A stretch of DNA of 64,000 nucleotides, taken from NCBI GenBank assembly GCA_000004695.1, contig CM000155.2:608001-672000 (forward strand). Reading direction: 5' to 3'. A program made the position numbers and the translations under genes. Under the pieces are notes generated by a model. That model was not told the DNA's origin. It did no database searches and worked only from the letters and a program-made list of their open reading frames with translations. The DNA comes from Dictyostelium discoideum (Eukaryota). Below are positions 1 through 59,320 of the stretch, in pieces. The first letter of the stretch is position 1. The number at the start of each line of letters is the position of its first letter.

Positions 1-2016
1 TACAAGGACGAACAGTGTGGGTGATAGTGGATCTCCTTGTTTAACTCCTCTTTTGATCTCAAAGGGTATAGTAATTTCAATTCTTGCTTCAGATTTGGTG
101 AGTAGATTCATTATCAGGTTGATTATATTGGTTGGAATGTTGATGTGTTGTAGTGATCTAAGTATTGAACCGTGTGAGATCGAGTCAAAAGCTTTTTCGA
201 AATCATATAGTGTAATTATTCCGTTAATTCTTTTATCATTACAATAGTTGATTAATTCGTTCATTGATATGATATTATCTAGAATGAATCTGCCTGGTAC
301 GAAACCTTTTTGATTGTGGTTGATCACTTTCGTTAGTATTGGGATTATTCTATTGTTTATTAGCTTTGAGTGGATTTTATATATCCAGTTAGCCAGTGTA
401 ATTGGTCTTCTGTTTTTGATTAGTTCGGGGTCTCCCTTTTTAGGTATCGTGATAATGAGGCCTTCTTTGTAATTTTTGCTAATTAGATGAGGATTTCTTA
501 GAGTGTCGTTGAATGCTGAGGCCAGTATTGGAGCTAGTTTTTCTTTGTGTGTTATGTAGAATAAGTTTGGAATTCCATCTGGGCCTGGAGATTTGTGTGG
601 GTTCAATTGTTTTATTACTTCTAGGATCTCTTGTGATGTGAATTCATTTTCAAGGTTGTCCCATGTTGAGTCCCTGGTCACTGTCCAATTTTCCAACATT
701 TCATAATGAGATGGTGGGTCATCTTCTTTGTAGTCATAAAGATTTGAGTAATATTTTACGTATTCTTCTTCGATCAATTCCTGTTTGTTGATTGTTCTAC
801 CTTGTGCATCTTTTACTGCGTTGATGGTGAAATCATTGTGTCTTTTCTTGATTCTCGCGGAGATGTACTTGAGTGAGGTTTCTTCGCAATAGTTGTTCAA
901 TTCTTGTTTAAGTTGTTCTTCTCTTTTTTTAGATTCATTTATTGCTGAAAGGGTTGCGAAGGCTTGGTCTTTAAATTCTGTCTCTAGTAGGGAGATTAGA
1001 TTTTTGATGTTTGCCTTATTGTTGTAGTCATTTTGTTTTTGAAATTCTGTGTATAGTTGTTTTATTTTGTTTAGTAAGCTGTTGAGTTGAGAGAAGGAAA
1101 TAGAGTTATGGTTGGATGACAGCTCCCTTGAATAATCGTTAAGTAGGAAGTCTATTTTCTTAAGCATTATGCTTGAGAGGATTGAGGATTTTTTTAATCT
1201 CCATCTGCGCTTGTTCATCTGTATGTTGGGTAGAGTGAAGGTGGTTGATAGGAAGTTGTGATCTGATAGAGGTATGTCATTAATTTTTGGGGGGATTAGG
1301 TTCCTTAAGTATAATTGGCTGTAGTTGATTATGCTATTGTTAAGGTATATTCTGTCTAGTCTCCTTTCCAAGATTCTTGTGAGGTTATTGTTTGTGTTGT
1401 GTATCGTTCTTGAGAAGGTGGGTCTTTTATTTAGTTGGTCCATATCCATTAGGTTATTTGAAATTCTGATGGCTTCGATTACTGTGGCCATCTCATCTGG
1501 GGATTGTGTTGTCAAGTTGCCTTGGTCATCATTTGATGTGTGATTGTCATTGAAGTCTAAACAATTGAAGTCGCCTGCTATGATGTCGATGTTTTTTTTA
1601 GGGTTAGACGTTAGGTTGTGGTATTGGTTGTTGAAGTGTTTGTTTAGTGTTGAAGCTAGTATTTTTCTTTTATCAGGTTGGGCCGGGGCGTATATGGCCA
1701 AGATTCTCGTTGTGGTATCTTTTATTAGAATGTCTGATATTATTAGTCTACCTTCTATTATGAATATTGGTGAGAGTTTTATGTTTTGGTTGTTGTGGTT
1801 TAGTATTCCTATTCCGTTGCCTCTTTTGGTTGCGCTAATGATGGAGCCAGGGAATAGCTGGTGTGCTTGTGTTGCGTCGGCGTTGAGTTCATTGACTATG
1901 GTTAGTGCCAATGAGTTTGGGGGGGATTGGGATTTGATAAAGTCTGTTTTGTTTTTGAAGGAGGTGTCAGTGCCCCAACCTCTGACATTCCATTGGTTGA
2001 TTTTGATTACTACCAT
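1..2016 (-). CDS. Retrotransposon ORF2 with apurinic/apyrimidinic endonuclease then reverse transcriptase, partial (C-terminus off window).
   Basis: The ATG is the reverse complement of 2014-2016. The hand translation gives MVVIKINQWNVRGWG...IYAPAQP...GDFNCLDF...SDHN (APE motifs), followed further 3' by the RT motif SPGPDGI. It is absent from the ORF track because it has no stop inside the window. Confidence 0.7.
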   Translation of the reverse strand, partial: MVVIKINQWNVRGWGTDTSFKNKTDFIKSQSPPNSLALTIVNELNADATQAHQLFPGSIISATKRGNGIGILNHNNQNIKLSPIFIIEGRLIISDILIKDTTTRILAIYAPAQPDKRKILASTLNKHFNNQYHNLTSNPKKNIDIIAGDFNCLDFNDNHTSNDDQGNLTTQSPDEMATVIEAIRISNNLMDMDQLNKRPTFSRTIHNTNNNLTRILERRLDRIYLNNSIINYSQLYLRNLIPPKINDIPLSDHNFLSTTFTLPNIQMNKRRWRLKKSSILSSIMLKKIDFLLNDYSRELSSNHNSISFSQLNSLLNKIKQLYTEFQKQNDYNNKANIKNLISLLETEFKDQAFATLSAINESKKREEQLKQELNNYCEETSLKYISARIKKRHNDFTINAVKDAQGRTINKQELIEEEYVKYYSNLYDYKEDDPPSHYEMLENWTVTRDSTWDNLENEFTSQEILEVIKQLNPHKSPGPDGIPNLFYITHKEKLAPILASAFNDTLRNPHLISKNYKEGLIITIPKKGDPELIKNRRPITLANWIYKIHSKLINNRIIPILTKVINHNQKGFVPGRFILDNIISMNELINYCNDKRINGIITLYDFEKAFDSISHGSILRSLQHINIPTNIINLIMNLLTKSEARIEITIPFEIKRGVKQGDPLSPTLFVLV

Positions 2017-2981
2017 TATGAGATGATATCGATCTCCTCTTGGGAGTCGTTTAGCTGCGGTTTGGATGGTGAAGGGTAGATACTCTCTATGAAGCTCTCA
2101 ATGATTCCTTTCCTTTCTTTTTTGACAGGTGTCTTAGGGGTGGATGGGATGTAAGGGTTGCTTCTGTTTATTGTTGGTGAGAGTTGGGTGACTTCATTGT
2201 TTGAGTGGATTTCCTCGTTCTTGCGTTTATGTGATGGAGGGATGTTTAGTGTCTTCTCTCTGTTTTCCGAGGATGAATGGATGTTAGTGCTTGTTTTGTT
2301 GGCATTGTCTTTTTGGATGGCGTTGGATGTTGTGGTAGTGGTTGTGGTGGGTTTGACAGATTGAGATTCTGCTGGGTTTTTGGGGGGAAGAGGTTGAGAT
2401 GACTTTTTTGCTTGGGCTTTTTTCTCTTGTGTTGATTGTTTATCAGACTGATTGTTTGCTGGGTTGTTTGTTTGGGTGTTAGGAGGATCTGTCATCTCAT
2501 CTTCTAATGGTTCCTCCGTGTTGTTTGTCTCTACTTTCTTGTTTTTCTTTTGTGAGGAGTAGGTTTTGGTGGCCGTTCTGATGGTAAAGTTTGCGATTTC
2601 TGTAATGTGTTGGCCAGATTTCATTTGATCGCCTATTTTGCATTCTATTAGACCGAATACTATGAGGTGGTCGGTGGAGTATATAGTATTGTATATTGCA
2701 TAGGGTATTTCTTCTGCAAAGGCAGTTTTGATGAGGGCGTCCACTATTCCTGCCTTTTCTCTGGGAATTCTTACTCTTCCTGTGAGGACGTGGAAGTCTC
2801 TACTGGAGGTGATGAAGGTTCCCAATTTGCTTCTATCTCTAATGATATTTAGGAGAGATTGTTCGTTTTTAATCATCAGGTGGATCATTTTTCTAGTTCC
2901 TTTGCCTATGTATATCTTGTCGATTGGGATATCGTAGTTTGAGAGTGTTTTTCTCATTTCTTCTAACCCCTTGAGATCCAT
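2016..2981 (-). CDS. Retrotransposon ORF1 (321 aa).
   Basis: ORF-track ORF MDLKGLEEMRKT..., with an ATG at 2979-2981. It lies immediately 5' of ORF2 and overlaps it, as in TRE/L1-like elements. Confidence 0.6.
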   Translation of the reverse strand: MDLKGLEEMRKTLSNYDIPIDKIYIGKGTRKMIHLMIKNEQSLLNIIRDRSKLGTFITSSRDFHVLTGRVRIPREKAGIVDALIKTAFAEEIPYAIYNTIYSTDHLIVFGLIECKIGDQMKSGQHITEIANFTIRTATKTYSSQKKNKKVETNNTEEPLEDEMTDPPNTQTNNPANNQSDKQSTQEKKAQAKKSSQPLPPKNPAESQSVKPTTTTTTTSNAIQKDNANKTSTNIHSSSENREKTLNIPPSHKRKNEEIHSNNEVTQLSPTINRSNPYIPSTPKTPVKKERKGIIESFIESIYPSPSKPQLNDSQEEIDIIS

Positions 2982-3278
2982 TTTGGGGAATTCGAGTGTA
3001 ATTGGGTAGAATCCGTTGTTCTTCTCCTAGGTTGAGAGCGCAGTCATGTTCAATATGGTCTCGCAGTATTTGGAGATGTCTTTGAGGCCTATTGATAGTT
3101 TGGGGTAGGTCTCCTTTATCTCTGCTGTTTTTGTGGAGAATTCCTTAATGAAGTTCTCCGATGCCTCGTCCATATGGGTGGAGGGGTTGGCCATTTTAGC
3201 CGCGTCTGCGTAGGAATTCATCTCGATGGGATTGCTTTGAATCGCCGATTTGGTAAGCTAGATCTGCAGATCGCGCCG

Positions 3279-3378
3279 NNNNNNNNNNNNNNNNNNNNNN
3301 NNNNNNNNNNNNNNNNNNNNNNNNNNNNNNNNNNNNNNNNNNNNNNNNNNNNNNNNNNNNNNNNNNNNNNNNNNNNNN
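3279..3378. other. Assembly gap (100 N).
   Basis: A run of N. Four further identical 100-N placeholders lie at 10332-10431, 19337-19436, 25315-25414 and 58800-58899. Confidence 1.
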
Positions 3379-3443
3379 TTGAAAAAAACAATCACCCACA
3401 ACAATTTTTTTTTTTGAATATTTCATTTTTCAAATAAAAAAGC

Positions 3444-3488
<45 letters not shown>

Positions 3489-3563
3489 GGAACCAAGTTA
3501 ATTAGAAAATTTCCAGATTTTTAACTTTTTAAAGAAAAATAAAAAAGATAGAAAGAAAATAAA

Positions 3564-4898
3564 ATGAAAATCACAAACAACACCACAAATATTAAGCAAC
3601 ACAAATGCCTACAAAAAATAAGCGAAATTGTGGATAAAACTCAATTAAAAAAAAAACAATTCAAATACGTCATAAACATCAATCACGAACCAGACGATAA
3701 AATAAAAAAAGATTTAGAAAAAAGTTTGGACAAAAAAGATGTTTTAATCAAAAGTAATAATACATTCAAAATTCTCACAGACAGTATTAGTACAGTAATC
3801 TATTTTGTAAATATGTTTGATGCAGAATTAAAAGGACAATTTATAACCACTATAAGACCAAAAAATATGTATACAGATTTTGATTGGTATAAATCACTCA
3901 CAGAAATAGAATGGGTAATAGAAAATGAAGGATGTAAACTAATTAAATCAGAAATTAAAGGCGAAACTCTAATTATCAAAACAGTGAAAAGAGTCGTAGA
4001 AGAATTTGACACTATCATTGAACTAGACAATCTAACATTAATTGGACACTCCAACAAAGGATGGAGAGATCAAACCTCATTACCAGAAAATCAAGAAGAA
4101 AACAAAAATAAAAAACAATCAGATGAACAACAACCACAATCTACATCAGAACAAATACCAAAACAAGGAAAAAGAACAATCATTATCCCACCAATCACAT
4201 CCTCATCTAATGATAAAACATTTATGGCCCTAGATGATACAGCTCAAAAGGTAATAGAAGCATCACTAGAAAACGTAGATGAACTAACAAGAATAGAGAA
4301 TGAGATCAATACACAATCGATAAACAATCAAGAAATTAAAACAAAATCAGAAAAACCTATCGAACCACCATCTCCATACAATACACCAATAAAACAACAC
4401 GGCGAAACAAAGGGACTAACAACGGAAGAAAAACTTAGAGAGGCAAATGATATCTTCGACTTCACCAGCCCAAACACTGATGCAATAAGAAAAATAGAAT
4501 TCCCACTTTCAATCCCTTCAAATCAATGGTTCTTCTCCTCTCCAATAAAACATATCATGAGTTTCAGCCCAACCTATGGTACACCATCGAAAATTATCGA
4601 TTCACCAAGTAAATTGTTAAACACACCAAAAAAGAAACAACAAGACAAAACAAACAAGACCAACAAAACACCAGTCAAACCAAAATTGGGTGAATATGGA
4701 CAAAAAAGCATAAAAACAAAAATGGATGAAGATATAGACAACTTCAACAAGGAAATTCTAAAACAAATCAATAAATCAAAAAACCCCACAAACACACAAG
4801 ACCAACAACACAATGAACAAAGTAAAGATCAGTTAGAAGACAAAATAAACCAGAAACTTCAAAAGGTAGATAAAAATCTACCCCAAATAAAACTATAA
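3564..4898 (+). CDS. Retrotransposon ORF1 protein (444 aa).
   Basis: Long ORF MKITNNTTNIKQHKC... The same 5' 200 nt is repeated at 5297-5497. An endonuclease-type ORF2 start lies directly downstream. Confidence 0.6.
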   Translation: MKITNNTTNIKQHKCLQKISEIVDKTQLKKKQFKYVININHEPDDKIKKDLEKSLDKKDVLIKSNNTFKILTDSISTVIYFVNMFDAELKGQFITTIRPKNMYTDFDWYKSLTEIEWVIENEGCKLIKSEIKGETLIIKTVKRVVEEFDTIIELDNLTLIGHSNKGWRDQTSLPENQEENKNKKQSDEQQPQSTSEQIPKQGKRTIIIPPITSSSNDKTFMALDDTAQKVIEASLENVDELTRIENEINTQSINNQEIKTKSEKPIEPPSPYNTPIKQHGETKGLTTEEKLREANDIFDFTSPNTDAIRKIEFPLSIPSNQWFFSSPIKHIMSFSPTYGTPSKIIDSPSKLLNTPKKKQQDKTNKTNKTPVKPKLGEYGQKSIKTKMDEDIDNFNKEILKQINKSKNPTNTQDQQHNEQSKDQLEDKINQKLQKVDKNLPQIKL

Positions 4899-5152
4899 AG
4901 AAAAACACAATAAGAATAGGTGTTTGGAACGTCCAAGGATCCAACACCATCCAATCTGCCAGCATAATAAACACCGTTTTAGACAACAACAAGCTGGACG
5001 CAGCACTTCTAACTGAAACAAATATAAAAACAAATAAAATTTACTCAATAAATCAACAATATAAAAACAAAATAACACACCACGCACCAATTGATAAAAC
5101 AGGACAAGGGGTGTCACAAATCATCATCAACACCCGCAATAGAACTTCCTAA
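4874..5152 (+). pseudogene. Truncated ORF2 (APE N-terminal fragment) of the TRE3-like copy.
   Basis: The frame -1 relative to ORF1 reads PNKTIKKNTIRIGVWNVQGSNTIQSASIINTVLDNNKLDAALLTETNIK... and ends at a TAA at 5150-5152 next to the deletion junction. No in-frame ATG precedes it. Confidence 0.5.
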
Positions 5153-5194
5153 ACATCTCAAAAAATACAATAATTCACTCAGTACTTTCTATAA

Positions 5195-5250
<56 letters not shown>

Positions 5251-5253
<3 letters not shown>

Positions 5254-5566
5254 CCAGTTTATTCAGAAAAATTAAAAAAGATAGAAAGAAAATAAAATGA
5301 AAATCACAAACAACACCACAAATATTAAGCAACACAAATGCCTACAAAAAATAAGCGAAATTGTGGATAAAACTCAATTAAAAAAAAAACAATTCAAATA
5401 CGTCATAAACATCAATCACGAACCAGACGATAAAATAAAAAAAGATTTAGAAAAAAGTTTGGACAAAAAAGATGTTTTAATCAAAAAGACCCTGTAAAAA
5501 AAAAAAAAAAATAAAATGAGATCTAGCATCTCAAGGAGAAGCAAATAATAATTGCGTTATCCAATT

Positions 5567-5602
<36 letters not shown>

Positions 5603-5750
5603 GAACCAAAAAAAAAAAAAAAAAAAAAGTAAACTAACCCCTCTTTTAGAGACCCTGTAAAAAACTACAAATAAAATGAGATCTAGCATCTCAAGGAGAA
5701 GCAACTAATAATTGCGTTATCCAATTCAAAAAAAGGACTTATTATTAATC
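5251..5750 (+). mobile_element. Second, severely truncated TRE3-like copy: 5' UTR plus the first 63 codons of ORF1, fused to two tandem ~85-bp 3' modules separated by A-tracts.
   Basis: 5272-5486 is near-identical to 3539-3760 and diverges at ttaatcaaaa|agaccctg. The unit agaccctgtaaaaa..taaaatgagatctagcatctcaaggagaagcaa.taataattgcgttatccaattc occurs at ~5487-5569 and ~5658-5740. Confidence 0.5.
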
Positions 5751-5951
5751 CCCATTAAAAAAAGACTTTTAATATGAATAAATATTAAAAAAAAAATGAA
5801 AATGATTGGAAATAAGTTTATTATATATTTATTTAAAGAAACAACTATAAAAAATGTTTAATCAGCTTTTTTTTTAAAATCAGTTTATTTGAAATTTATC
5901 AAATAAAAAAATAAAAACTGGAAATTATTGGAAATTAAGTTTTATTTTAAT

Positions 5952-8504
<2,553 letters not shown>

Positions 8505-9176
8505 TATATATATATATATATATTTATTATTATTTTTTTGGATGTGATTTTATTTATTTGTGTGAATATTAAAAATTTGGAATTAATACAATGGAAAAAA
8601 AAAAAAAAATTTTAAACAAAATAAATATTTAAAAAAATGAGAAAAGGTATAATTTAATTAATATTAAAATAAATAATAAAAAAAAAAAAAAAAGGATTAT
8701 TATAATGAGAAAAATTTGTATAAATTATTAAATTATTATTATAAATGGGGTTCACTTTTTTGGTTAATTTTTAATTTTTAATTTTTAATTTTAATTATTT
8801 TTAATTTTGGTTTTAATTTTTTTTTTTAATTTTTTTTAATTTTTTTTAATTTTTTTTATTTTTATTTTTATTTTTATTTTTATTTTTATTTTTATTTTTA
8901 TTTTTATTTTTATTTTTTTTATTCAACTAATTAATTTAATTTAATTTAATTTAGTTTTTTTTTTTTTTTTTTTTTGTTTTATTTTTTTTTTTTTTTTTTT
9001 ATTAGGAAATGATTTAACAATTTAAAAGGAACATGTAATGCAAATAAAAAATAAAAACTAAAATATTTACCCTATTCATATATGAATTGATTCAACTCGT
9101 TAACCCATTACACTATTTTGTGGATTTTTTATTTATTCGAGTTAAAAAAAAATTCTTAAAAAAAAATTTTTTTAAG

Positions 9177-10162: not shown

Positions 10163-11497
10163 GAAGTCCAATAGATGATAGAAGGAATACTCCATTACCA
10201 CCACCACAACAACAACCAATTACACCAAACCAACAACAACAACCACAAATACAACAGCATCAACAAATACAGCCACCTCAACAACAGCAACCAATATATA
10301 ACCCTTATCCACCATATCCATATTATCAAACNNNNNNNNNNNNNNNNNNNNNNNNNNNNNNNNNNNNNNNNNNNNNNNNNNNNNNNNNNNNNNNNNNNNN
10401 NNNNNNNNNNNNNNNNNNNNNNNNNNNNNNNTTATCAACCTCCACCAAATCCATATTATTATAAACATCCACCACCAGCACCACATTATGTTCCACCTAA
10501 TCCTTATTATCAAATTCCACAACCCCCACCAGCACCACAACCACCACAACCACCACAACCACCCCAACCACCACAAGCACCTCTACCACCTCAACCACCT
10601 CAACCACCCCAAGCACCTCAACTACCTCAACAACTAATTCCATCACAAAAACAAGAGCATCAAAATATAAGTAGAACGTCAGCTTCAGTAATAGCAGAGG
10701 CAACAGCTGCCTCATCAAATAATCAAAAATTAAACTATCAACCACCACCACCAAGTTATTATCAACATCAACAACAACAACCAAATAATTATCAGCAACA
10801 ACAACAACAACAACAACAATCATCACCATTACCACCACCAAATTATTATTTAAATCCATTATCACAAACTCCAATTGATCCACAAATGGCAAGTACATCA
10901 GCAAATTTAATTGATAGAGAGTTAGAGAATGAACAATTTTATCCACCAATTCAAAGTTTCTCAGCCAATATTTTAGCAAATGGACAAACATTAAGCAATG
11001 TTAATTTTAATAATCAAACCTTGAAGAACATTACCTTTTTAAATAGTACAATATCGGCAAGTCGTTATCAACATACAAGATTCGAAGGTTGTATCTTTCA
11101 AGAATGTAACATCAATAGCAGTTCCTTTATCGAATCTGCATTCATTGATTGTATATTTATGAATTGTAATATCAATGGTTGCGATTTCTCAAAATCAACC
11201 CAAGAGAACTGTTATCATGTCAATAGTGATATCTCCAATTGTAATTTCTTTCAATCCTCTGGTAACAATGTCAAATATGTCGCTGTCACTATGTTAAATA
11301 ATAATTTCGCTCATAGTATTCCTCGTAGTACATTCTGTAGATGCAACCTAACAAATGCTCAATTCTCAAATTGTAATCTCTCAAAAACAAGATTTAAAAT
11401 CTCACAACTCAATTATGCTAATTTTGTCTCTGCTTATTTCGACCTTCCATTAGACCATATCTTTGATCAAAGATCTGAAAGAAAACTTTGTAAATTT

Positions 11498-12662: not shown

Positions 12663-12774
12663 TCTTTAAAAATATTTTGGGTGTATAATATTAATATATT
12701 ATATATACAAACTATGGGAAAATAAAAAAAAAAAAAAAAAATGAAAAATTAAAAAATAAAAAACTAAAAAATTG

Positions 12775-12806
<32 letters not shown>

Positions 12807-12918
12807 AATTGACCACCTAACAACCACAACATATTTTCATTTTTTTTATTTTTATTTTAATTTTTTATTTTTAATTTTTATCTTTATATTTCTGATTTGA
12901 TTTATATTATTAATAAAA

Positions 12919-13509
12919 ATGTTGGTGAATAATATTTTTCAAGATTTATAAAATGTAGTAGATTATTAATTTTTTGCTTTTAAAAATAGGTCCAAAGTCA
13001 CTTTTAAAATCACTTTAACATCAGATCCAAAATTACCATTTAGAGTGTAAATTATTATTATCATTATTATTAATAATATTATTAATATTAATATTAATAT
13101 ACTAATCTTTTTTTTTTTTTTAGAATTAATGTTACAGAAGATACACCATTTACAGCAGTTTTAAGATTTGCATGTGAACAAGTAAGAATAAAGAATTTTT
13201 TAAGATTTTCTTTTTTTTTTTTTTTTCAAGGTTATACTAATTTTTTATTACTATCATATAGTTTAATGTCCCATGGCAAACATCAGCAATTATTACAAAT
13301 GATGGTATTGGAATTAACCCAGCACAAACAAGTGGTAATATATTCCTTAAAAATGGTTCAGATTTAAGAGTAAATATAAACTTCACCCTTTTTATTTATA
13401 TTTTTTTTTTATATTAATAATAACTAATTTTTATTTTATCTTTATTATTATTTTTTTTTTTAAAAAAAAAAAAAAGTTAATTCCAAGAGATAGAGTTGGT
13501 GGTTTATAA
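12919..13509 (+). CDS. ufm1: Ubiquitin-fold modifier 1 (UFM1).
   Basis: Exons: 12990-13046 ([19 protein letters not shown]), 13124-13181 ([19 protein letters not shown]), 13262-13369 ([36 protein letters not shown]) and 13477-13509 ([10 protein letters not shown]). The start codon is apparently split (AT at 12919-12920, then an intron, then G at 12990). This is tentative. Confidence 0.8.
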
Positions 13510-16701: not shown

Positions 16702-21217
<4,516 letters not shown>

Positions 21218-24617: not shown

Positions 24618-25438
24618 AAACAAGTGGCCAAATCAAAAAAACAAAAAAAACACAAATCAACACAAAAAATTAAAAAAAAAAAAAAAAAATTAAAAATTAA
24701 AAAAAAAAAAAATTGAAAAAAATAAAAAAAAATTACATTTGTTAAAAAAAATAAAAAAAAATAAAAAAAAATAAAACTTAAAAAAAATTGAAAAAACAAA
24801 ATAAAAAAAAAAAATTGAAAAAACAAAATAAAAAAAAATTTCAAAAAAAAAGAATGATCGAAGAATTAATAGATTCGATAAAACTCTTAAAAAATTTAGC
24901 CATTGAATATGGCAATGAAGAATAGTTAGATTCAGAGGAAAATTTGACTAAATTCCTCGAAAAAGCAGCCAAAGTACTATATGTAAATAGGGGGGATGCT
25001 TTAATCGTTAAAAATTCAAATATGATGTTAGAAGCATTAGAATTAAAATCAAAACAATTTCCCCAACATTGTGTAAAAACTGTAATAAAAAACGAATAAT
25101 ATTTGGACTTTTTTGTATACAAAGGAAAATGCAAAAACATCAAATGCACCAGAGGTAACAAAGCTAGAAAAAATTCAATTGGGTGCAGTGTTTACAGTGA
25201 TATGGTAAATCAAGCAATTGAACAACTCAGGGAGTTAATAAAAATAAATCAATAAAAATAAATTAAAAAAAAAAAAATTGAAAAAAAAAGCAAATTAACC
25301 TTAATGATCAATGANNNNNNNNNNNNNNNNNNNNNNNNNNNNNNNNNNNNNNNNNNNNNNNNNNNNNNNNNNNNNNNNNNNNNNNNNNNNNNNNNNNNNN
25401 NNNNNNNNNNNNNNAAAAATTTTAAAAAAAAAAATTTG

Positions 25439-57912: not shown

Positions 57913-59320
57913 TTTATTATGTGTATGTATGACTATGTGTTGTGATATATAATTGTTTTTTTTTTTTTAAAAAAAAAAAAATTGCTACTTTAAAAAATTA
58001 AAATTTGGAATTTTGGAAAAAGGTTTTTTTTTTTTTTTAAAAAAACTTTTAATTTTTTTTTTTTTTTAAATTTTTTTTTTTTTTTTTTTTATGCTATGGA
58101 GTTACTAATTAGGAAATCTATTGTTAGTCAGTTACGAAAAAATAAAAAAAAAAAAAATATTAAGTTAGGAAGTGAATCTGCATTATTTTAAAATTTCAAA
58201 AATAAAAACTGGTAAATCTATCAATTTGCCAAATTTAACAGTAAATAGAAAACAATTTTAAAATTTTAAAATTTTAAAATATTATAATAAAACATACTTT
58301 TTGATTTTTTTTTGATTTTTTTTTTTTTTTTTGATTGATTTTTTTTATTTTTTTTATTTAATATTAAATAAAATATGTAGGGATAAAATAATTTAAAATA
58401 TTATTATAAAATTAATAAATTGTTTTTTTTTTTTTTTCTTTTTCTTATTTTATTTGTGATTAAAAAAAAATAAGAAAAACAGTGGGACTGCTTCAAATAT
58501 TTAAATTTATAAATTTGATTTGAAACAACCCAATCCTACCTTAAAATTGATGAGGATTGGGTTTTATTTTTTGTTTTGTATTATTTAGGTGAAAAGAAAA
58601 TTGGAAAAAAATACTGAATCGTATCAAAAAACTAACAATAAATAGAGAAATCTAAAAAAAAAGTTTTTTTTTTATTTTATTTTTTTTTAACTTTGCACTA
58701 TTATTGGTATTGTTGTTGTTTTGATACTTTTTTTATAGTTTTGTTTTTTTTTTTTTTTTGTTTTGTTTTGTTTTGTTTTGTTTTGTTTTGTTTTGTTTTN
58801 NNNNNNNNNNNNNNNNNNNNNNNNNNNNNNNNNNNNNNNNNNNNNNNNNNNNNNNNNNNNNNNNNNNNNNNNNNNNNNNNNNNNNNNNNNNNNNNNNNNT
58901 GTCTTGATTATAGATCAAATCTATTAAAGAGAAAAAAAAAGAAAAAGAGTGAAACAGTCTGAAAAATGTTTAAATAAATAATTATAAAAAGATTTACAAT
59001 TTTATATTGGGAGTGTTGCTATTTTTATATTATTTTCACCATCATATCAAAAATGTACTTTTTTTTTTTTTTTTTTTTTTTTTAGGGGGATCCCAACACC
59101 TCTACATGTAAATAAATAAAAAAATAAAAAAAAAAAATAAAAAAAAAAACACACACCCACAACAAGTGTTGTTGTTGGAAATTATAAATTTTATCTGGGG
59201 GGTAAGGGGGGGGGACTTTTTTTTTCTTTTTGAAAGGGAACCGGGGAATGGAAAATATATATATATATTAAAAAATAATAAAAATAAAAATAAAAATAAA
59301 ATTTAAATTAAAAATGTTAG

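Follow-up and report, generated by a model that had tools for sequence, protein, structure and literature searches.

The locus described here poses a simple question: what separates two retrotransposons whose 5' ends face each other across an assembly gap? The window, by which we mean the whole 64-kb stretch of AT-rich Dictyostelium DNA that was analysed, carries near its left end a minus-strand element, a run of exactly 100 N at 3279-3378, and a plus-strand element. The original prediction, made from this geometry, called the left element TRE5 and the right one TRE3, and proposed that a Pol III gene is hidden in the gap. The head-to-head arrangement and the 100 N are real, but the families are swapped: the left element belongs to TRE3 and the right one to TRE5-A. 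Because the geometry is mirror-symmetric, the idea of a hidden tRNA survives this exchange of labels, and it is supported at its core by the targeting rules of both families and by synteny. The strand does not survive, as the gene would lie on the minus strand and not on the plus strand implied by the first labels.

The minus-strand element (1-3278) is a defective non-LTR retrotransposon of the TRE3 family, most likely TRE3-A, the subfamily being assigned from length and abundance only. It is 96-98% identical to the TRE3 copies at two other loci, L009 and L010. Two ORFs are present, with the stop codon of ORF1 overlapping the start of ORF2 (TAATG, 2018-2014 on the minus strand), and ORF2 shows the APE-then-RT order of the family; its zinc finger would lie outside the window. 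The reverse transcriptase is well supported (Pfam RVT_1, E=9.3e-24, aa 524-671), and the endonuclease is represented by a weak Exo_endo_phos match (E=7e-4, aa 9-253) that falls under the curated cutoff. A full TRE3 copy at another locus (L020, 5830-11060) measures 5231 bp. The literature gives the consensus of TRE3-A as 5229 bp, that of TRE3-B as 5279 bp and that of TRE3-C as 4734 bp (PMC5006619, Table 1), hence the TRE3-A call, although length discriminates only weakly between TRE3-A and TRE3-B.

The likeness to TRE3-A (formerly Tdd-3) extends to the two ORFs, the endonuclease and reverse transcriptase in ORF2, the length and the high copy number. Read through its stop codon, the 401-aa ORF1 product matches a D. 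discoideum protein of 417 aa (P0001) at 92% identity; the 90% cluster of P0001 contains 37 ORF1 sequences. In the window copy, unlike TRE3-A, ORF1 carries a nonsense codon and has lost 48 bp, and with them 16 amino acids (NRIAIKSSQPKPQQQT) that are present in intact copies; these defects relative to other copies were also examined by comparison with a second protein, P0002. Another protein, P0005, was considered as a gene model of the window copy and rejected on its sequence. An exact-protein look-up of the 321-aa ORF1 fragment in other assemblies returned no record. Position 3278 had been taken as the 5' end of this element, but at this point the 5' UTR runs into the gap, with about 114 nt to go to the start of the consensus.

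Judged by its sequence, the plus-strand element (3379-5598) is a complete, non-autonomous TRE5-A.2 with a partly resolved A-module. TRE5-A has been described as having an AB-ORF1-BC architecture, with an A-module of 200 bp and a B-module of 290 bp that sets the start of ORF1 (PMC3159450), and an ORF1 product of 51 kD (PMC5911963). A TRE5-A.2 form without ORF2 is also known (PMC5391098). The window element reads, in order, as a partial A-module, oligo(A), a B-module with the ORF1 start, ORF1, a 3' B-module, a C-module and an A tail. Thus, the UTRs are modular, an ORF1 of about 51 kDa starts in the 5' B-module, and ORF2 is missing, the last of these making the element a non-autonomous TRE5-A.2. 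Eleven contigs of the D. discoideum assembly GCA_054883475.1 carry the identical 444-aa ORF1 protein, and nine of these loci (L002-L010) were taken as sister copies. Eight of the nine contain a 2.2-kb unit with which window positions 3381-5582 are colinear at about 98% identity, the comparison being with unannotated genomic copies. Compared with TRE5-A.2 (formerly DRE, a TRE5-A derivative), the window copy has the same 199-bp A-module, duplicated B-module of about 290 bp, ORF1 start within B, C-module with oligo(A), and lack of ORF2. Nothing essential differs, except that its A-module region is interrupted by the gap and that the 50 nt at the edge are about 88% identical to other copies. Segment 5197-5486 was also considered as the 5' end of a second element; this was rejected, since the colinear sister copies identify it as the canonical 3' B-module of TRE5-A.2.

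These assignments change the reading of the DNA next to the gap. The right-hand element had been thought to start at about 3483, leaving some 200 bp of resolved spacer, but TRE5-A begins at the gap edge, with the first 70 nt of an A-module and then oligo(A). No host DNA is resolved between the two elements, as all of 3379-3484 is TRE5-A. The run of 11 T at 3405-3415, proposed earlier as a Pol III terminator, does exist. It lies, however, within the A-module, where the consensus reads CTCTTTTTTT and two C-to-T changes produce the run; in the window as a whole, runs of at least 11 nt number 87 for T and 90 for A. As a terminator it would also sit on the 5' side, and on the opposite strand, of the minus-strand tRNA predicted here. 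In other loci the 199-bp A-module unit is found in 1-21 tandem copies: 21 full units in L007 (1629-5810), eight in L008 (4218-5810), seven in L002 (4420-5814), and one each in L003-L006 and L010. Such tandem arrays are probably one reason why assemblies break at the 5' ends of TRE5-A. Feature coordinates are collected in Table 1.

Table 1. Features at the left end of the window, from the TRE3-A element to the DDHD gene (positions are those of the window).
Feature	Position	Strand	Remarks
TRE3-A, defective	1..3278	-	Runs off the left end of the window; gap cuts it ~114 nt before the 5' end
TRE3 ORF2, N-terminal 672 codons (endonuclease and start of RT)	1..2016	-	No stop in the visible part
TRE3 ORF1, inactivated	2016..3221	-	In-frame TAG at 3029-3027 (Tyr elsewhere) and 48-bp deletion
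TRE3 5' UTR, resolved 57 of 171 nt	3222..3278	-	Last 50 nt at the gap edge 89% identical
Placeholder gap	3279..3378		100 N; content predicted
Terminal partial A-module (first ~70 nt of the 199-bp unit), including T11 at 3405-3415	3379..3448	+	Alignment to sister copies and pairwise to the L005 A-module
Internal oligo(A) between A- and B-modules	3449..3484	+	In 9 of 9 sister copies
5' B-module, ~290 bp, with ORF1 start at 3564	3485..3774	+	Duplicated at 5252-5486 (90% identity); 98% match to 3' B-modules of other copies
TRE5-A ORF1, 444 aa, 51.3 kDa	3564..4898	+	ATG 80 nt into the B-module
ORF2 stub (~300 nt) and internal oligo(A) at 5196-5251	4899..5251	+	ORF2 deletion that defines TRE5-A.2
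3' B-module	5252..5486	+	Repeat of the 5' B-module
C-module (5487-5567) and 31-nt A tail	5487..5598	+	3' end of TRE5-A.2
Older, heavily 5'-truncated TRE5-A remnant	5599..5734	+	CCTTGAACC, A21, complete C-module 5629-5727, A7
Host intergenic DNA to the DDHD stop	5735..5951		First ~175 nt from the stop align with the L017 spacer: few mismatches, one 7-nt indel
DDHD gene	5952-8504	-	Neighbour of the transposon cluster

Both families have published integration rules. [quoted passage not shown] The published distances are 47 +/- 3 bp upstream of the tRNA gene for TRE5-A and 14-228 bp downstream for TRE3-A. The reference genome has 102 TRE5-A and 67 TRE3-A copies, of which 98 and 60, respectively, are directly beside tRNA genes; both families are present at 13% of the tRNA genes (PMC5006619).

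The sister copies of the two window elements were examined against these rules, which most copies in both sets followed; two junctions without a tRNA are discussed below. [quoted passage not shown] The TRE3-A set comprised six loci with intact copies (L011-L016). In five of them the conserved 5' start AAAAAAACCGCACCGCG follows the end of a same-strand tRNA at a distance of about 62-100 nt. In the sixth (L014, 2150-2330) the element is preceded by a sequence that resembles a tRNA and contains a B box (GGGGGATCGAATCCC); ARAGORN makes no call there, and the sequence may be a degenerate or unusual tRNA. The company kept by the sister copies fits the families given above: copies of the left element follow same-strand tRNAs, which makes it TRE3 and not TRE5, and copies of the right element stand upstream of opposite-strand tRNAs at 45-50 nt, which makes it TRE5-A and not TRE3. 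With TRE3-A on the minus strand at the left and TRE5-A.2 on the plus strand at the right, the published rules call for a minus-strand tRNA between them.

No such gene is visible in the resolved sequence, as the original prediction had correctly noted. ARAGORN found no tRNA in the resolved sequence of the whole window, and a permissive Rfam E-value scan of 2600-6000 gave chance-level matches only and no tRNA. The length of the gap carries no information in this respect. The 100-N run is one of five in the window, and the one at 10332-10431, inside a Pro/Tyr-rich coding repeat, corresponds to 45 bp (ACCACCTCCACCACAACATCCATATTATGTAAATACAAATAGAGG) in a near-identical assembly (L001, GCA_054883475.1); the N runs are therefore fixed-size placeholders. 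The other three lie at 19337-19436, in ATT/GTT trinucleotide repeats, at 25315-25414, in A-rich intergenic DNA, and at 58800-58899, in a GTTTT repeat. These three are simple-sequence assembly breaks unrelated to transposons. At the gap between the two elements the edges are of low quality, with 88-89% identity to sister copies in the last 50 nt as against 96-100% further in. The corresponding contig of the near-identical assembly (JBTAPE010000029.1) ends at its position 12918, equivalent to window position 5585 in the A tail of TRE5-A.2, and so does not bridge the site. A second, independent assembly has thus also failed at this transposon cluster, and the adjacency of the left and right elements is known from the present scaffold alone.

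The right-hand flank offers an independent view of what was there before the transposons. Beyond TRE5-A.2 lies a short TRE5-A remnant, which points to a second TRE5-A insertion at the same target; TRE-TRE tandems at repeatedly hit targets have been described (PMC5391098). Candidate target-site duplication sequences in the 3' flank of TRE5-A.2 are CCTTGAACC or GGACTTATTATTA. Next comes the DDHD gene, whose orthologue in a related but divergent strain (L017, GCA_054859355.1) encodes a protein 86% identical. In that strain a tRNA-Glu(UUC) is located at 12704-12777, 234 bp past the DDHD stop, in the orientation that corresponds to the minus strand of the window. It is called by ARAGORN, as tRNA-Glu(ttc), and matches Rfam RF00005 with 56 bits, and an external B box (GGTTCGACTC) lies downstream of it. 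Also downstream, at 12960-13152, is a short remnant of the 3' end of a TRE3-like element, complete with poly(A) tail and 83% identical to the end of TRE3-A ORF2; it indicates that the same tRNA-Glu was hit by a TRE3-type element in the divergent strain as well.

The spacers of the two strains align from the DDHD stop to a point that is 64 nt before the tRNA in the divergent strain and 42 nt before the TRE5-A remnant in the window. The end of this alignment fits integration some 47 nt in front of the tRNA, once a target-site duplication and small indels are taken into account. The D. purpureum DDHD orthologue has no tRNA within 4 kb, a result that is uninformative at that evolutionary distance, and the 850-aa DDHD protein is absent from the protein-cluster collection searched. 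On the other side, a 715-aa gene beyond the tRNA-Glu of the divergent strain was considered as an anchor for the left flank and rejected. A search for its orthologue in the near-identical assembly led to homologues, P0024 and P0026, at unrelated discoidin loci, so that the left flank of TRE3-A is not anchored. In two other strains (L018 and L019, about 6200-8800), homologues of this fast-evolving gene adjoin tandem discoidin-type genes (F5_F8_type_C and H_lectin). The family of the 715-aa gene has several members and shares no synteny with the DDHD locus.

Taken together, we consider it quite probable that the gap contains a tRNA gene. This would most likely be a minus-strand tRNA-Glu(UUC), whose presence in this genome and position inside the gap we infer from the orthologous locus and from the two elements that point at it. 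Read from left to right, the locus would then consist of TRE3-A, the gap with the predicted tRNA-Glu(UUC), TRE5-A.2, the older TRE5-A remnant and the DDHD gene, and in all probability represents a textbook case of a doubly occupied tRNA target. Doubly occupied tRNA genes in the reference genome (PMC5006619) show the same TRE3 - tRNA - TRE5 order with both 5' ends toward the tRNA, and the TRE5-TRE5 tandem on the upstream side is a shared feature too; the present locus differs in that the tRNA would be in the gap and is not visible.

The course of events might have been as follows. A tRNA gene about 230 bp downstream of the DDHD gene, most likely the minus-strand tRNA-Glu(UUC), would have served as the landing pad. 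[quoted passage not shown] TRE3-A, by now defective, would have inserted about 60-100 bp downstream in the tRNA's own orientation. The assembler would then have broken between the elements, probably in a tandem array of 199-bp A-modules, and a 100-N placeholder was left. From left to right, the gap is predicted to contain about 114 nt of TRE3-A 5' UTR, a spacer of about 60-100 nt with the external B box, the minus-strand tRNA-Glu(UUC), a spacer of 45-50 nt, and at least one 199-bp A-module. The hidden sequence should accordingly be at least about 300 bp long, and probably exceeds 500 bp.

Some junctions of this type do lack a tRNA. In two of the nine TRE5-A loci, L009 and L010, a minus-strand TRE3-A stands beside a plus-strand TRE5-A.2 with no tRNA between them. 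The junction in L009 (5860-5900) contains a 21-nt inverted piece of TRE5-A ORF1 (TAGGCATTTGTGTTGCTTAAT) and no target-site duplication, which suggests a secondary deletion or rearrangement with loss of the tRNA and both 5' ends. In L010 (5560-8020; GCA_054883475.1, JBTAPE010000034.1) a clean TRE5-A.2 insertion is flanked by a perfect 14-bp target-site duplication (CTATTAGAAATAGG), and a TRE3-A with a truncated 5' end lies 41 bp away. Neither a tRNA nor a B-box motif was found within 300 bp of the 5' end of this TRE5-A.2, and the nearest tRNA, a tRNA-Ser(tga), is 520 bp past its 3' end. A search for B boxes (GTTCRANYC) in TRE3-A and around the L010 insertion gave nothing convincing. L010 may thus be an off-target TRE5-A integration.

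By analogy with these two loci, the window might have no tRNA left, through deletion or rearrangement as in L009 or through off-target insertion of TRE5-A.2 beside TRE3-A as in L010, and the gap would then be filled by A-module repeats, TRE3-A 5' UTR or both. The 45 bp behind the 100 N at 10332 show that a small gap would be possible. We nevertheless regard this as unlikely. In L009 and L010 TRE3-A is truncated deep in its ORFs, whereas the window copy continues up to 114 nt from its 5' end. Elements joined directly would form a unique sequence that assembles without difficulty, and one would not expect a gap there. Moreover, the syntenic tRNA-Glu is situated exactly where the 5' end of TRE5-A points, and two successive TRE5-A insertions argue for a real Pol III target. 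The more specific proposal that TRE5-A.2 integrated beside the 5' region of TRE3-A with no canonical Pol III target present, for which the clean L010 insertion would be a parallel, is rather improbable for the window. If true, it would imply that TRE5-A can be recruited by a cue different from tRNA genes and B boxes, such as chromatin or proteins associated with TRE3.

It is very unlikely that the contigs ending in TRE3-A and in the TRE5-A A-module are not neighbours at all and were misjoined during scaffolding, in which case tRNA-Glu might still adjoin TRE5-A.2, with TRE3-A coming from a different locus. The fixed placeholder (with five such gaps in 64 kb), the low quality of both contig ends over their last 50 nt, and the break of the independent assembly at the same element would all be expected from a misjoin. 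It would not account for TRE3-A having exactly the orientation expected for a minus-strand tRNA, nor for the TRE3-like remnant that also lies downstream of the syntenic tRNA-Glu in the divergent strain. As for the first labelling, with a minus-strand TRE5 at the left, a plus-strand TRE3 at the right, a plus-strand tRNA and the T11 run as its terminator, there is next to no chance that it is correct: the symmetric head-to-head geometry fits either labelling, but the tRNA strands and distances of the sister copies refute it for both elements, and the T run is A-module sequence.

A tRNA gene flanked by TRE3-A and TRE5-A insertions is a phenomenon already known, and nothing here is new in kind. 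Because the geometry of such a pair is the same in both directions, assignment of an element to a TRE family needs homology and not appearance. Beyond annotation the result means little: if the gap were closed as predicted, one more tRNA-Glu(UUC) and one more doubly occupied target would be added to the D. discoideum catalogue. In practical terms, the orientation of TRE elements can flag tRNA genes that are hidden in assembly gaps.
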